A model generated the notes under the pieces. It had not been told where the DNA came from and did not search any database. It saw nothing but the letters and a program-made list of their open reading frames with translations. From Promethearchaeota archaeon (GTDB lineage Archaea; Asgardarchaeota; Thorarchaeia; Thorarchaeales; Thorarchaeaceae), in the NCBI GenBank assembly GCA_048939765.1, contig JBHLPF010000017.1:10742-74741 (forward strand): a stretch of 64,000 bases of DNA. The letters run 5' to 3'. Numbering within the stretch: the stretch's first letter is position 1; each line of letters begins with the position of its first letter. The translations under genes were made by a program, and so were the position numbers. This document shows positions 32,125 to 39,041 of the stretch, piece after piece.

Positions 32125-33264
32125 CTATCGTGGAAAGTTGTCCCTCAGAAGTCGCAGATGGTGATGAACCATCTCCATCGCCCTTGGATCATCAGGAGTC
32201 TTCTCCAGATCAGTGACCAATGTCTGGAGGAAGTACTCAGGGAAGAAGAGCCTTACACGAATATCGTTGAGAAGGAACAGCCATTTGTCATATTCACCGG
32301 ATGCTCCCTTTCTTCTTCGTTCCGAAACCACTCGATACTTCTTCAAGGTTTGAATAGCCTGCTTTAGTTCCTTGGGAGGAATGCCAAGGGTGGCTTCGAG
32401 CTCGGAGATGTTTACGGGTCTACGCCTGAGCTCATTCAGAGTGTCGTAGCAGTCTGGATCTGCAAGAATAGATGCTACGGATACGGTATCCTCAGGTGTC
32501 TTTTGCCATTCTGTAAGGAACTCAAGGACCTCTGACTTGTACTCCGCAGTGAGTTCGGGATCAAGCACAGATCCTGCAGATTCCATTGCCAGCAACGGAG
32601 GAGCGCGAAACACCTCAAGATCCTTTATCATGAATACACAGGTTCGGCCGATTTCATCGACCCATTCACTCTTTACAAGACCTAGCTCTTCGAATGGAGC
32701 GATGATTGAATCGACCGAAACGCTAGGTAGACCGGTAACCATCTTGAGCCATTCCTCAAGATCCTCTTTGGAGATGCCTCCCTTCCAGAGTTTTGGGAAG
32801 ACCGCTCGTGAAATCTCATCCGAAAAGAGACGGGCAAGTCGTGACTCATCAGTCATGCCAGCCAGTCGAATAATCCGTCTGTATGTGTTGTCGAGCTCTG
32901 TCTTGAGCTCTGCATCAGTCATCGCAACAACAGCATTCGTTAGCGGGGATACAATTGAAGTAATTGCAGCCTCGTAGACCTTAGGATCTTCAGAGGGGGT
33001 CAGTAGCAAACTGATACAGTATTGCTCCTCCTCTCTTACAATCCCAGTATAGTAGGAGGCTACATTGTATTCTTCTCCTCCAATGCGAACACTGAGGGAT
33101 GAGAAACCAGCTGTGGCGTCACCCATAGCGTGCGAGGTGAATATTCTCATGATCTCGGTGTTCAAGTCTTCTCGGTAATAGTCCGCGAAGTCGGCTGGAA
33201 CCTTGGCCTTCAGCACTGCGCCAATTTTACTGTCCCAGTCGATCAAGAGCATGGCAACGGGCAT
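32125..33264 (-). CDS. Longin/uDENN-like protein with winged-helix domains (NPRL2-like architecture)
   Basis: N-terminal MLLIDWDSKIGAVLKAKVP pattern; YCISLLL strand; C-terminal wHTH (ISELEATLGIPPKELKQAIQTLKKY). Confidence 0.6.
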   Translation of the reverse strand: MPVAMLLIDWDSKIGAVLKAKVPADFADYYREDLNTEIMRIFTSHAMGDATAGFSSLSVRIGGEEYNVASYYTGIVREEEQYCISLLLTPSEDPKVYEAAITSIVSPLTNAVVAMTDAELKTELDNTYRRIIRLAGMTDESRLARLFSDEISRAVFPKLWKGGISKEDLEEWLKMVTGLPSVSVDSIIAPFEELGLVKSEWVDEIGRTCVFMIKDLEVFRAPPLLAMESAGSVLDPELTAEYKSEVLEFLTEWQKTPEDTVSVASILADPDCYDTLNELRRRPVNISELEATLGIPPKELKQAIQTLKKYRVVSERRRKGASGEYDKWLFLLNDIRVRLFFPEYFLQTLVTDLEKTPDDPRAMEMVHHHLRLLRDNFPR

Positions 33265-33399: not shown

Positions 33400-34062
33400 T
33401 CAAGTTTGACCATTTTTCTGCTTCTGGATGTACTCCGTGATATGATAATGTACCTCGGCAGTCACAAGCTCTATTGATCTCCTTGCATCAATGAAGACGA
33501 AATTGCCTATGTCCTCCTCAGTCATCTCAAGGTATGCCCGTCGAACCCTGACCAAACGATCATATTGCTCAAACTGCGCATTGAGGCTGCCTTTTCTTTC
33601 GCTGACTCTTTTCAGGCCCATTTCAACTGGCACATCAAGAATAAACACGATGTCAGGCTCTGGGGCGGATATCTCCTCTCGATTCCGCCTCAAGATGTCC
33701 TTCCAATGCAATCCAGTGCTTGCAGACTGATATGCTCCAGTTGCAAAGAAATACCGGTCCATGAGGATAATCTTCCCTGATTCTAGAGCTGGTAGAATAC
33801 GATTTTGGACGTGCCATTCTCTGTCACGAATAAACAACTCCAGCTCTTCTTCCGGGGTGAGTTCACCCTTTAGAGACCGTGCCCGAATCTCTTGACCCCA
33901 ATCACTCTCATCTGTTGGCTCTCTAAGCCTCTTGACATCATAGCCTTCATCAATCATAGCATCAATTAGTCGGTCGCATACGGCCGTTTTTCCAGCACCA
34001 TCCACGCCCTCTAGGACAAAAAGCATACCTTTCACAGTTGAGATTACTCCTATGTCATGCAT
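33400..34062 (-). CDS. tmk: Thymidylate kinase
   Basis: LEGVDGAGKT, REPT, MDRY, AYQ, PDIVFILDV. Confidence 0.95.
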   Translation of the reverse strand: MHDIGVISTVKGMLFVLEGVDGAGKTAVCDRLIDAMIDEGYDVKRLREPTDESDWGQEIRARSLKGELTPEEELELFIRDREWHVQNRILPALESGKIILMDRYFFATGAYQSASTGLHWKDILRRNREEISAPEPDIVFILDVPVEMGLKRVSERKGSLNAQFEQYDRLVRVRRAYLEMTEEDIGNFVFIDARRSIELVTAEVHYHITEYIQKQKNGQT

Positions 34063-34190
34063 TGAATTCCCGGACTCGCTCCTGTATTAGATGCTTCGGT
34101 GATGTAATATGTCCGGATAGCACCATCTACTCACCCATGAGTAGCTTCCTATCGCCATACAATGTTTATTAGGAACATGAATCAGTATTC

Positions 34191-34400
34191 ATGTGAGAAC
34201 CAAGGGGATCTCAAGGTATTCTCTCGACGTGGACACTCGAGGTGAGAAATCGGTAGGGCATCCCCCTCCCATGTAACAAACTGCGATAGCGACTTGCGTC
34301 CAACCGCGTTCGTTCGTTCTTTGGGTCCCCTTTATAGGGGGGCCAAGGTCCCCTTGCAGAGTTCTCATGCCCCCGATTCGCTATGTCGTGTGTCCACGAC
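34191..34400 (+). ncRNA. Candidate ~210-nt riboswitch-like or independent structured RNA
   Basis: P1 UGAGAAC/GUUCUCA plus CAAGGGGAUC/GGUCCCCUUG, two inner hairpins, and a 3' tail complementary to three internal segments; TTTATTA about 25 nt upstream; G-U pairs favour the plus strand. Confidence 0.6.
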
Positions 34401-34450
34401 CCAATTCAAATCAAAGGTCAAATCAGGAATGTTTATTTGTCAACAACTTG

Positions 34451-34472
34451 TAGGATAGGTTAACCTATCCTA
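34451..34472. promoter_or_regulatory. Perfect 22-bp palindrome, candidate operator
   Basis: TAGGATAGGTTAACCTATCCTA, between a TATA-like TTTATTT (~34432) and the start of the DUF4430-like gene. Confidence 0.6.
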
Positions 34473-34480
34473 GGGATTGA

Positions 34481-35005
34481 GTGGGCTTGAACCGTCTGAG
34501 AATATTGATGCTTGTCATTGTATTAATGGTGATTCCTGTAGGCGCTTCGAGCCACAATGTTGCCATTTCGCACTATCTTGGACCAAATGCTAGTGGCGTA
34601 TCGCTGCATATCGACTACGGTAATGGGACCACATCTACCCATACCGAGGTTGAAGGGCTGACTGTTCTAGACATCACTGAATCCGTGGCAATAGTTCAAG
34701 TGGACTGGACTGGCGATCTTGCCTTTGTATATTCAATCAATGGAGTGTCCAGTAAGGAAGAAACAGGACTCTGGTGGCAGTTTTGGGTCAACGGTGAATT
34801 CTCTTCAGTCGCAGCTAACCTCTATGAGGTTCAGGAGAACGATACGATAATCTGGAGATTCACTGACTCCCAAGTGGAACCTCCATCGACCACAACGCCT
34901 GAGAACCCTGGACGGTATGCACCACTTGCTGTTGCGTCTGTTGGACTTGGATCTCTGGGAGTAGGTTTCTTGGCAGCCCTCTACCTAATGAGAAGGAGGA
35001 ACTGA
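34481..35005 (+). CDS. DUF4430 (transcobalamin C-terminal-like) membrane-anchored protein
   Basis: Signal peptide; FVYSINGV, WWQFWVNGE, DTIIWRF; C-terminal TM plus RRRN. Confidence 0.8.
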   Translation: MGLNRLRILMLVIVLMVIPVGASSHNVAISHYLGPNASGVSLHIDYGNGTTSTHTEVEGLTVLDITESVAIVQVDWTGDLAFVYSINGVSSKEETGLWWQFWVNGEFSSVAANLYEVQENDTIIWRFTDSQVEPPSTTTPENPGRYAPLAVASVGLGSLGVGFLAALYLMRRRN

Positions 35006-35013
35006 TAACAGAT

Positions 35014-35760
35014 ATGAAGAAACAAGCCAGTCCATTCTTTCTTATTGTGCTTTTCCTCATCGCGCCAGCTACAGGAACTCCAACGGATTACAATCCGAAT
35101 CTTATGCCAAGGGATTCCGTCCCCACTAGAATAACTTGGAATGTAATAGAGGCTCCTGAAGCAGCATTTTCCTTATGGTTCTCAGGGACAGGGAATTGGC
35201 TGGCTCAGGAAGGCAGTCAAATGACATTCAATATTACCGGTATCAATAGCGACGTAGAGGGGCAATTGGAACTTGGTAATGTCACCTTGACATCAAATGA
35301 TACAAACATAGCCAAGGATCTAACGCTGGGGGTGTGGGGCCTCACTCCCTGGCATCCAGGCCTAGTAGTGAAAATTGGAGATATCAACCTTGAGAGTCTG
35401 AACCAGACTGCATTCGCTGCTGCCGAGAGAGTTGCAGGCAACTATCTAAATGGTACAATGGAGTCATCCTTTGAACCTGTGGAATCTAATGGAAGACTGT
35501 ATGATTGTATTGTCTTTCAATATGAACAGGATCCTACAGGCTTTGGAGAACCGCAAATGACCACTCTTGCTTATGATACTGAAACGGGAGTTCTTGTAAA
35601 AGCCAACACGAGCTACTCATTTGGTGTTCCCTATATCCTGATTCTTGGGCTCGAAGGAATTCATATTCCCGGAGTGGACCCAATCCTTGTCTGGGCAGGA
35701 TTCGCGATTGCTGGAGTGGTGCTAATCATAGTTACTGTTGTCATTAGAACCAGAAGATAG
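35014..35760 (+). CDS. Secreted membrane-anchored hypothetical protein
   Basis: Signal peptide, beta-rich body with YDTETGVLV, C-terminal TM plus RTRR. Confidence 0.75.
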   Translation: MKKQASPFFLIVLFLIAPATGTPTDYNPNLMPRDSVPTRITWNVIEAPEAAFSLWFSGTGNWLAQEGSQMTFNITGINSDVEGQLELGNVTLTSNDTNIAKDLTLGVWGLTPWHPGLVVKIGDINLESLNQTAFAAAERVAGNYLNGTMESSFEPVESNGRLYDCIVFQYEQDPTGFGEPQMTTLAYDTETGVLVKANTSYSFGVPYILILGLEGIHIPGVDPILVWAGFAIAGVVLIIVTVVIRTRR

Positions 35761-35771
35761 AATGGAGTTGC

Positions 35772-36377
35772 ATGGAATTGCAGATGGAGATCAATCAGCA
35801 GGCGTCGATAGCACGAAGCCGCCAAGTCGCCATAACTGCAATCATGACTGCTCTCGCACTGGTGGGCAACTATGTCTTTGTTGCTATACCCAATGTAGAA
35901 CTAGGTTCCGGGATTCTCTTTGTGACGGCGTACCTATTTGGATTCCAGACTGGCGCTTCATGTGCAGTGCTGATGGCCATCATTTTTGGCTCAATAAACC
36001 CTTGGGGAGGCCTTGTACCACAAATCTGGCTAACACAAGTCATAGGATGGTTATACATTACTGCTGCAGGTGCTCTAATGGGGAGAGATAGGCATGGATT
36101 TAGTCACTCTATGAGAGATGTATGGATACTTGGATTCATGGGAGCATTCCTGACATTCTTCTTTGATATGCTCACGAATCTTGGCTATTCATGGGCGTTT
36201 GGAATACCGTATTGGCTTGCTATTGTTTCAGGATTTCCCTTCATGGTCGTTCATATAGTATCAAATGCCATAATCTTTGGAGCTGTGGCGCCCCGACTGG
36301 ACATAATAATCCGGAGCCAATTCTCGTCACAAATATGGAGTACTGAAACAGAAATATTGGGGCTGAGCGAAGAGTAA
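35772..36377 (+). CDS. ECF transporter S component (CbrT-like)
   Basis: IMTALAL, IPNVE, about six TMs, GFPFMVVHIVSNAIIF. Confidence 0.82.
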   Translation: MELQMEINQQASIARSRQVAITAIMTALALVGNYVFVAIPNVELGSGILFVTAYLFGFQTGASCAVLMAIIFGSINPWGGLVPQIWLTQVIGWLYITAAGALMGRDRHGFSHSMRDVWILGFMGAFLTFFFDMLTNLGYSWAFGIPYWLAIVSGFPFMVVHIVSNAIIFGAVAPRLDIIIRSQFSSQIWSTETEILGLSEE

Positions 36378-36400
36378 AAAGTGAGCCTGGATAGAAGAGT

Positions 36401-37048
36401 TTGGAGCGTCCTAGCGTGTCTTGGAAAGAGAAATTCATTCAGCTTGTAGGGGCAGCAGATGGCAGAGTGGCTCCTGCATTCGGACCTCATCATGCAGCAG
36501 TGGCTTTGGTGATGATTGGACGTGAACAGCCACTCGGCAGATATGAGCTCTGCCAGAATCTTTCTGTGGGAGAAGGAAGTGCGCGTACTCTTTTGAAGCG
36601 TCTAACAGAGTCTGGGTATATTTCTCCGGAAGGAAAGCAGGGGCAGAGGCTGACTGATAGAGGACAGGAGCTGTTTGAGGAGGTTTCTAAGGAAGTCCCT
36701 ATAGGCCTATTTCTTGATGCACCAGCTCTTGTCATGCATAAGAATGCATATGCAAATCTCATCAGAAACAAGGGCGATGACGTGAAGGACGGGATTAGGC
36801 AAAGAGATGAAGCTATCATTCAAGGAGGAGGATATGATAGTGCAGGAGCTACTACTCTGATTATGAGAAATGGCTCTATTGTCATGCCGCCAGATGACTT
36901 TCATACACTCATTGAGTATGAGAGAGAGACTCTTCTAATTCTTGAGAGCTTAAGACCTGAAGAAAATGATGTCATTATCATTGGGTCAGCAGACGACCCC
37001 AATCTCGCGCGCGAAGTTGCAATGGCAGCTGTTATGACGCTTTTCTGA
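36401..37048 (+). CDS. Winged-helix protein (DUF2111/DUF4443-like)
   Basis: PLGRYELCQNLSVGEGSARTLLKRL HTH; GIRQRDEAI...GATTL. Confidence 0.75.
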   Translation: MERPSVSWKEKFIQLVGAADGRVAPAFGPHHAAVALVMIGREQPLGRYELCQNLSVGEGSARTLLKRLTESGYISPEGKQGQRLTDRGQELFEEVSKEVPIGLFLDAPALVMHKNAYANLIRNKGDDVKDGIRQRDEAIIQGGGYDSAGATTLIMRNGSIVMPPDDFHTLIEYERETLLILESLRPEENDVIIIGSADDPNLAREVAMAAVMTLF

Positions 37049-37059
37049 GAGGAATCAAT

Positions 37060-37887
37060 ATGCAGATGGACCTGTTCGGGAATGTCCCTCAAGTTGTGAT
37101 AGATGTCCATGAAACGGGCGGAAAACGAACAAATGCAGTCAAACAACTAATGAGCATGCTTGACAAGGAAGAGATTTCCTACACTGTAGAGAAAATACCT
37201 ATTGGAGACGTTTTGGGACCTGAAGGGATTGCAATAGAGAGAAAGACAGTATCTGACCTTGTCAACACCCTAAAGGGCAGTGCAGCTGGAGTACCTCGAT
37301 TCACGAAGCAGATGGACGCACTTCTCAAGTACGACAAGCCGTATCTTCTGATTGAGAATATTCTAGCAATTCGACGCGATCCACTGAAAGGCTGTGTATA
37401 TGTGCCATTCAAGACAAAGCAGACAAAGGGACGGCCTTACGTTGTCACAATGGAGAGGGCAAATTACATTCACCCAAGCGCTCTGGATGCCCTGATTGAA
37501 AGCGTACAGGAAAAAGGAATCAAGGTAATCTCAGGGTTTAACGCCTCACATTCTGCGGGATTGCTATTCGGCATAATCACTGAGCAGACAGAGAATGAAG
37601 ACGGAAAAGGAAGAAGGCTTCCAGTAATCAGAACTCGAAAAGGGCTGGACTCAGTTGAGGATGAGCAGGAGTTCTTTGTAGCCGGATTTCCCGGCATCAA
37701 TGTCGTTCGAGCAAGAAGTTTGCTGGAGAGATTTGGGTCTCCTTTTGAGATCGTCACTCGCACTGATGAGTGGACTAAGCTACCTGGAATAGGACCAAAG
37801 ACAGTCGAGTCAGCTAAGAAATTGCTCTACTCAGATTATGTGCCACCAAAGGACAATGATGAGAAGATAGATGAGGAAGAGGGCTAG
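37060..37887 (+). CDS. ERCC4/XPF-type structure-specific nuclease (short form, with HhH2)
   Basis: IDVHE, GD, IERKTVSDL, LLIE; FPGINVVRA and LPGIGPKT HhH motifs. Confidence 0.9.
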   Translation: MQMDLFGNVPQVVIDVHETGGKRTNAVKQLMSMLDKEEISYTVEKIPIGDVLGPEGIAIERKTVSDLVNTLKGSAAGVPRFTKQMDALLKYDKPYLLIENILAIRRDPLKGCVYVPFKTKQTKGRPYVVTMERANYIHPSALDALIESVQEKGIKVISGFNASHSAGLLFGIITEQTENEDGKGRRLPVIRTRKGLDSVEDEQEFFVAGFPGINVVRARSLLERFGSPFEIVTRTDEWTKLPGIGPKTVESAKKLLYSDYVPPKDNDEKIDEEEG

Positions 37888-37952
37888 CTCGCAAGTTTTA
37901 AAAAGTGAAACTATTCTATGGCGATATAATACCTAGGAGAAGGTGCTATCTC

Positions 37953-39041
37953 GTGGGAGACGTTCGCATAGCGATTGCAGGACTTGGGAACTGTGCATCT
38001 GCATTGATCCAAGGAGTGCATTATTACAAAGACGCAAAGGCTGAGGATGAAGTACCAGGTCTGATGCATGTTGATTTCGGAGGATACTTCCCCAAAGATT
38101 TGAAGTTCGTGGCTGCTTTTGAAGCCAATAGGAGAAAAATCGGAAAGGACATCGCAGACGCAATATGGGAGGAGCCAAACTGCTGTGTGCCCTTCTATCG
38201 TGATGTCCCAAAGACAGGTGTAGAAGTCCTGCCAGGACCGATATCAGATGGAGTAGCCCCACATATGAGAGAATCGTTCTTCGCCTATGACGAGAACGAA
38301 ACGGAACCTGTCAATGTTGCAGAGGAACTTAGAAAGTCAAAGGCAGATATGTTAGTTTCATATCTTCCTGTCGGTAGTGCAGAAGCTGCAAGAATCTACG
38401 CAGATGCGGCGATTGAAGCGGAAGTCGGTTTCATAAATGCATTTCCTGAATTCATCGTTTCAGATCCGAATAGCCCCCATGCTCAAGCCTTTGAAAAGAA
38501 AGGAATTCCTGCTGCAGGAGATGATATTAAGAGCCAGCTTGGCGCCACTATTCTGCACCGCGTTCTAGCTCAACTCTTTGATAAGAGGGGTTTAATCCTC
38601 CAAAACACATACCAGCTGAACATAGGCGGAAACACAGACTTTGAAAATATGCAGGTCGAGAACAGACTTCAATCCAAGAGAATCAGTAAGACCGAGGCAG
38701 TCACAAGTTGCGTTGAGTATGAACTACCTACAAAGATTGGGCCCAGTGACTATGTCCCGTTCCTTGAGGACAACAAGGTGTGCTACATCAGCATGCGTTC
38801 CAAGGCTTTTGGAGACCTGCCAATTGATCTCAGTCTGAAACTGTCTGTTCAAGATTCACCCAATTCAGCCGGTGTAATAATTGACGTTGCCAGGGCTGTC
38901 AAGATCGCTCTGGACCGTGGTATTGGCGGCGAACTTTCGAGCATTTGCTCCTATAGCTTCAAACACCCAAGGTACCAGATAGATGATTTTGAAGCAAGAA
39001 AGCGTGTCGATGAGTTCATCGAAGGAAAGCGCGAGAGATAG
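37953..39041 (+). CDS. ino1: myo-inositol-1-phosphate synthase
   Basis: AGLGNCASALIQG, YLPVGS, GDDIKSQLGAT, QLNIGGNTDF, KRISKT, DSPNSAG; GTG start at 37953 assumed. Confidence 0.96.
   Translation: MGDVRIAIAGLGNCASALIQGVHYYKDAKAEDEVPGLMHVDFGGYFPKDLKFVAAFEANRRKIGKDIADAIWEEPNCCVPFYRDVPKTGVEVLPGPISDGVAPHMRESFFAYDENETEPVNVAEELRKSKADMLVSYLPVGSAEAARIYADAAIEAEVGFINAFPEFIVSDPNSPHAQAFEKKGIPAAGDDIKSQLGATILHRVLAQLFDKRGLILQNTYQLNIGGNTDFENMQVENRLQSKRISKTEAVTSCVEYELPTKIGPSDYVPFLEDNKVCYISMRSKAFGDLPIDLSLKLSVQDSPNSAGVIIDVARAVKIALDRGIGGELSSICSYSFKHPRYQIDDFEARKRVDEFIEGKRER

Follow-up and report, generated by a model that had tools for sequence, protein, structure and literature searches.

The 418-nt intergenic gap between the gene for thymidylate kinase (tmk) and a run of plus-strand genes houses a structured RNA of about 205 nt (plus strand, about 34195 to about 34400), which is a new family restricted to one Thorarchaeota family. 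It is probably a stand-alone structured noncoding RNA (ncRNA) gene with its own promoter, a reading to which we give slightly better than even odds (roughly 55%). Comparison with its homologues indicates that the RNA is real, evolutionarily conserved, and folded. To our knowledge, Asgard archaea have yielded few structured RNAs apart from the universal ones, and archaea as a whole hardly any riboswitches. No paper describing this RNA was found in the literature. Its well-supported pseudoknotted fold, near-invariant 19-nt center, and clear genomic address make it a ready experimental target. If the RNA senses a ligand, one would have to ask how a riboswitch operates with the eukaryote-like transcription of archaea, and an Asgard riboswitch class would show how archaeal transcription can come under such control. 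If the RNA is a component of a ribonucleoprotein (RNP), it would mark a lineage-specific machine.

Positions are those of the 64-kb window, the whole stretch of DNA that was analyzed. The tmk gene lies on the minus strand (33400-34062; Pfam Thymidylate_kin, E 2e-40). The sequence TTAGATGCTTCGGT (34087-34100, minus strand) is kept across genera; it precedes the tmk start codon by about 25-40 nt and probably serves as BRE/TATA for a leaderless tmk mRNA. The first gene 3' of the RNA encodes a DUF4430 protein (34481-35005, plus strand) and is followed, also on the plus strand, by genes for a 248-aa protein without a family (p248), an ECF S-component-like (ECF-S-like) protein (35772-36377; a weak PF07155 match, E 0.003, below the cut-off), a DUF4443/winged-helix protein (36401-37048), and then ERCC4/XPF and inositol-1-phosphate synthase, which are co-directional with the DUF4430 run. 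Transcobalamin-like B12 binders have a C-terminal domain of the DUF4430 type (PMC4350170). Because the ECF-S-like match falls below the cut-off, the label "cobalamin uptake" depends on DUF4430 alone. The six co-directional genes from DUF4430 through inositol-1-phosphate synthase (34481-39041, plus strand) are separated by gaps of merely 9-24 nt, and thus the "uptake operon" may form only the first part of a longer unit.

The fold is organized by a long interrupted helix, designated helix P1 in the RNAalifold consensus. Its 5' strand (34231-34261, plus strand) comprises GGACACUCGA, GGUGA, a 3-nt bulge, AUCGG, and GGGCAU; its 3' strand (34367-34395, plus strand), which covariation also supports, comprises AUGCCC, CCGAU, UCGCU, and UCGUGUGUCC. 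The paired segments are 34231-40/34386-95, 34241-45/34378-82, 34249-53/34373-77, and 34256-61/34367-72. Helices 1 to 3 of helix P1 are 88-97% paired, with changes on both sides in 19 of 26 pairs; for example, GGGCAU/AUGCCC becomes GGACAC/GUGUCC or GGAUAC/GUAUCC, and CUCG/CGAG becomes CGUG/CACG. All of the pairings quoted in the initial annotation of this DNA are present at the positions that it gave, and two of its three tail pairings were confirmed in homologues: the tail-to-loop pairing around GGACAC/GUGUCC, with a conserved register of 34231-34240 with 34386-34395, and AAUCGG..GGGCAU with AUGCCC-CCGAUU. The third, UCGCUAU (34378-84) with AUAGCGA (34286-92), is probably due to chance, as AUAGCGA is invariant and its 3' partner is free to vary; positions 34378-82 covary instead with GGUGA at 34241-45. 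The outermost segment of helix P1 differs between genera, with a local hairpin added in two and an unrelated GGCGCC pairing in one.

Helix P1 (34231-61/34367-95) closes a junction bearing two hairpins (34283-317 and 34324-44), both of which had been proposed previously and were recovered in homologues. The junction strand J1 (CCCCCUCCCAUGUAACAAACU; 34262-34282, plus strand) is unpaired in the alignments, and its sequence is kept within three genera and different in the others. Hairpin P2 (34283-34317, plus strand) has three 4-bp segments (GCGA/UCGU, GCGA/UCGU, and UGCG/CGCG) and the loop UCCAAC. It is 96-100% paired and nearly invariant; both strands of the middle segment are jointly lost in one genus, and in one species (G011, L039:1501-1750) a 32-nt hairpin-forming insertion falls precisely in the loop. 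Hairpin P3 (GGUCCCCUU / AGGGGGGCC; 34324-34344, plus strand) is 95.5% paired, shows double-sided change in 7 of 8 pairs, and is missing from one genus. The divergent copy of genome G023 (L051:1501-1595), which no longer adjoins tmk, is partly duplicated in hairpin P2 and has lost some of its 5' half.

The two-part closing stem of the initial annotation was borne out by the homologue comparison as 34195-34210/34347-34366. Its 5' strand (plus strand), GAGAAC (34195-200) and AAGGGGAUC (34202-210), pairs with GUUCUC (34361-66) and GGUCCCCUU (34347-55), respectively. The 3' strand, GGUCCCCUU-GCAGA-GUUCUC (plus strand), in which GCAGA is unpaired, is conserved more strongly than any other part of the RNA and is invariant or nearly so over six genera. 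A genome-wide search allowing <=3 mismatches found neither another copy of the invariant 19-mer nor an antisense match to it. The two strands are complementary in nearly all homologues, spanning six genera, with duplex z values of -2 to -3.6 versus shuffles in most of them. In an anchored search, 6/6 and 7-9/9 pairs were found in 14 of 14 sequences from genera g1, g9, and g23; the other genera mostly had 4-6 and 6-8 pairs, with an ambiguous register in g7 and g6, and the divergent G023 copy scored 5 and 5. In a model built with the pseudoknot helix replacing the long helix, pseudoknot helix 1 was 95.9% paired and 3 of its 6 pairs were doubly changed. Because its 3' strand hardly varies, the pseudoknot is supported mainly by one-sided substitutions (A or G facing U, U or C facing G). 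The 5' end pairs back onto the 3' strand of the junction to form a pseudoknot abutting the long helix. The pseudoknot 3' strand runs to 34366 and is followed immediately, at 34367, by that of helix P1, and since no linker intervenes the two helices can stack end to end.

The same elements had originally been described as switch-like. However, homologues conserve the tail helix as well as the 5'-end stem, and a single structure can accommodate both, which favors a pseudoknot over a switch. The alternative tail hairpin, GUCGUG/CACGAC, is not conserved; it occurs solely in this genome and its closest relatives and is probably fortuitous. A conserved switch between two copies of GGUCCCCUU was also rejected, because both copies are found in this genus alone. 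RNAfold places the 5'-end stem in its minimum free energy structure and the tail helix in its centroid, a disagreement that arises because the program cannot draw both helices together.

Pair conservation was evaluated with 25-30 homologues. In the 25-sequence model alignment, standard pairs occupied 95.7% of cells, compared with 28-47% when the partners were slid by 1-3 columns; 29 of 46 pairs had changed on both sides, and none of 500 shuffles matched any of these measures. Fitting the alignments to the models favors such counts, and the raw MAFFT alignments display identical pair changes. The RNA core is invariant in genomes in which the neighboring tmk protein is ~60% identical. Flanking intergenic DNA is unalignable across the six genera, and the combination of such flanks with an invariant core and compensatory changes shows purifying selection on the fold. 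Indels within the RNA are not multiples of three, and one insertion falls in a hairpin loop. A protein-coding reading of the open reading frames at 34189-34368 (minus strand) and 34294-34458 (plus strand) was rejected for this reason and because neither had a Pfam hit. The folding energy of the plus strand (226 nt) had a z value of -3.05 versus dinucleotide shuffles, of which 1 in 200 was equally good, but that of the minus strand was nearly as good (z = -2.55), and energy by itself therefore cannot decide the strand. Many conserved G-U pairs would read C-A on the opposite strand, which demonstrates that the plus strand is the RNA strand.

By BLAST against relatives, the RNA occurs once per genome in two other genera as well as in most genomes of its own, and sequence conservation ends near 34400-34410. 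Among 87 genomes of the class, a covariance model (R1) detected a single copy in each of 27, all within one family: 12 of 16 genomes in genus g1, 7 of 7 in g7, 3 of 3 in g6, 2 of 2 in g9, and the one genome each of g8 (1/1) and g23 (1/1). R1 found none in 28 g5 genomes and none in ten further genera, and a broader model (R2) found none in 125 genomes from 26 other families of the phylum (Asgard). Searches of the genome and the window with filters off yielded no paralogue or second copy. An exact-word scan of all GTDB species returned just Thorarchaeota-type metagenome-assembled genomes and chance matches, and metagenomes contributed five additional close copies. In a two-gene tree, which is thin (402 columns), genera lacking the RNA fall among those bearing it with supports of 0.86-0.97, a placement that suggests that the RNA was lost repeatedly. 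Its confinement to six genera, together with this apparent repeated loss, identifies it as an accessory rather than a universal RNA.

Both of the TATA-like elements noted previously, at 34165-71 and 34432-38, are present and conserved. The first is part of a conserved BRE/TATA-like element, CAATGTTTATTAGG (34160-34173, plus strand; TATA 34165-34171), designated promoter P1, and its TATA lies about 25-30 nt before the first conserved base of the RNA. A counterpart is found at an equal distance in every genus, and the spacer to the RNA varies. The second is promoter P2 of the downstream operon (AATGTTTATTTG; 34428-34439, plus strand; TATA 34432-34438), which is not part of the RNA. It is conserved ahead of a perfect 22-bp palindrome, TAGGATAGGTTAACCTATCCTA (34451-34472), in genera with and without the RNA. 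The palindrome lies outside the RNA, is unique in the genome, and is kept in sequence without covariation across genera whether the RNA is present or absent. Its position over the predicted start site is that expected of an operator, and in genomes missing the transporter genes it stands immediately before DUF4443-ERCC4. The palindrome is probably the operator of the operon and probably that of the DUF4443 winged-helix protein.

The RNA is separate from promoter P2 and the palindrome of the DUF4430 operon. Four genera that lack the RNA have the corresponding flanking genes and a spacer of only 150-200 nt, which contains the tmk promoter motif, promoter P2, and the palindrome and nothing more. 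Conversely, three g7 genomes lack the genes for DUF4430, p248, and the ECF-S protein, yet their RNA core is intact and the RNA-P2-palindrome arrangement abuts DUF4443-ERCC4. One g1 genome has a solute-binding protein gene (SBP_bac_5) 3' of the RNA, and one g9 genome has a PAS protein gene there. The RNA is thus retained when either neighbor changes, and its retention without the transporter genes marks it as a unit of its own. Because promoter P2 and the palindrome are kept without the RNA and the RNA is kept without the transporter genes, a stand-alone ncRNA, with its own promoter at a fixed distance and conservation independent of the flanking genes, is the best reading. It is also the best supported of the three readings offered in the initial annotation, one of which was a stand-alone pseudoknotted ncRNA with the genes driven by the second TATA.

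According to the stand-alone reading, the archaeal TATA element at 34165-71 would be the RNA's own promoter, with the start and 3' end as predicted here. The scaffold of long helix, hairpins, and pseudoknot would present a putative binding site for a small molecule or protein, the likely functional center being GGUCCCCUU-GCAGA-GUUCUC with its unpaired GCAGA. The RNA would then act as a self-contained molecule, either a sensor or an RNP component, and not as an obligatory operon leader.

An alternative possibility is that the RNA is a riboswitch-type leader of a new class. Promoter P1 would then be a second, RNA-controlled entry to the operon, and a putative ligand, perhaps a corrinoid, would decide whether P1 transcripts stop before P2 and the operator or read through into DUF4430-p248-ECF-S and beyond. 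The RNA does have a conserved, covariation-supported fold of the aptamer type, a compact pseudoknotted junction with invariant unpaired bases. It resembles orphan riboswitch candidates and aptamer-like junction RNAs (cobalamin RF00174, ZTP-type pseudoknot) in its size of ~200 nt, multihelix junction, long closing helix, long-range pseudoknot, invariant unpaired nucleotides, and location upstream of and co-oriented with transporter genes. It is co-oriented with the next gene in 27 of 27 genomes and lies directly upstream of the same P2/operator in about 23, which fits a cis role as well as inherited synteny. DUF4430-p248-ECF-S lies downstream of the RNA in most genomes, and all of these loci are syntenic and hence not independent. 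The transcobalamin-like domain type of DUF4430 would suit a corrinoid ligand. U-tracts of 4-5 occur within 10-60 nt 3' of the RNA in several genera, and a scan for bacterial-type promoters and terminators found none. In this genus the first T-rich tract after the RNA is the TATA box of P2, and since no clear oligo-U terminator separates the RNA from the operon, P1 transcripts may run into it.

However, the RNA does not behave as a 5' leader whose gene depends on the upstream promoter, because a conserved TATA and operator intervene, and this complete promoter-operator combination occurs without the RNA in four genera. The RNA also persists in the three species without the three transporter genes and in the two with unrelated downstream genes. 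Unlike the aptamer-like junction RNAs, it comes with a promoter of its own, is separated from the genes by another complete promoter and an operator, and matches no Rfam model in sequence or structure. No conserved expression platform was found here, but such platforms are poorly defined in archaea; the alternative tail hairpin and second GGUCCCCUU copy are genus specific. Furthermore, riboswitches are rare in archaea and are mainly of the TPP and fluoride classes (PMC5473149). We therefore regard a leader function as on balance unlikely. The more specific proposal of a first Asgard-native riboswitch class, in which a ligand sensor with its own promoter gates read-through into a corrinoid-uptake operon in parallel to a protein repressor at P2, is doubtful.

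Searches for known identities are consistent with a new family. No Rfam 15 family was found at gathering score or at E<=10, either for the locus or for 18 divergent homologues searched with lax filters, and the sole Rfam hit, a CRISPR repeat model match to hairpin P3, was rejected as a chance match on the wrong strand. An ARAGORN scan of the locus found nothing tRNA-like. Inspection of the GAA bulge and GCAGA loop ruled against a K-turn, as there are no tandem G-A pairs.

A self-processing or catalytic RNA, such as a ribozyme in which a 5'-end pseudoknot positions the cleavage site (HDV-like, glmS), is suggested by the invariant, unpaired GCAGA. The strand order, in which the 5' strand, one strand of the second helix, and the hairpins are followed by the partner of the 5' strand and then by that of the second helix, also resembles that of nested pseudoknot ribozymes. 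Such a ribozyme is nevertheless very improbable: the RNA fits none of the Rfam ribozyme families, lacks a P1.1/P4-like element and a linker between its two 3' strands, and differs from most small ribozymes in being a single-copy element with a fixed location.

Within the 64-kb window, ATGTTTATT occurs solely at 34162-34170 (promoter P1) and 34429-34437 (promoter P2), bracketing the RNA, and in two relatives the promoter repeat is 12 nt long (CAATGTTTATTA). Because they share this word, promoter P1 looks like a duplicate of P2 or an insertion footprint, and recombination between the two copies could remove the RNA cleanly. The ~265-nt piece bracketed by the copies, which themselves could be a target duplication, could be regarded as a functionless insertion or duplication relic, as the whole unit is cleanly present or absent between genera and genera without the RNA are placed among RNA-bearing ones in the two-gene tree. 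A functionless relic is hardly credible, however, given the purifying selection evident over six genera with unalignable flanks and the single copy without a paralogue.

Membership in the cobalamin riboswitch family, as a highly diverged representative, had been suggested by the position next to DUF4430 and by a faint likeness to what we take to be cobalamin motifs (GGUGAGAAAUC; CCC..UGUAA), but this is close to refuted: RF00174 and related cobalamin models gave nothing at E<=10 for the locus or 18 homologues, the best RF00174 score in the genome (13.3 bits) maps elsewhere, two of the genera lack the UGUAA-like stretch, and the architecture differs, with the 5' end in a pseudoknot and no B12 box.

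Stand-alone RNAs with sensor functions have precedents in EutX and Rli55 of Enterococcus and Listeria, B12-controlled small RNAs in which a canonical AdoCbl riboswitch is used to sequester a known regulator protein. The RNA described here is likewise a structured, sensor-like RNA predicted to be in its own transcription unit beside related genes, but it has no recognizable known aptamer. With RNase P RNA and SRP RNA it shares a single copy, its own promoter, and a strongly conserved pseudoknotted fold. It is neither of these, as the genome-wide family models place RNase P RNA on contig C46 and SRP RNA on contig C12, and, in contrast to them, it is limited to six genera and apparently was lost repeatedly.

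Beyond tmk, a gene for a 379-aa protein (32125-33264, minus strand) encodes a product that is 84-99% identical across genera, compared with ~60% for the adjacent thymidylate kinase. Judged by these identities, the protein is unusually constrained. It belongs to no Pfam family; residues 262-318 alone give a weak signal, for a winged helix of the ArsR type.
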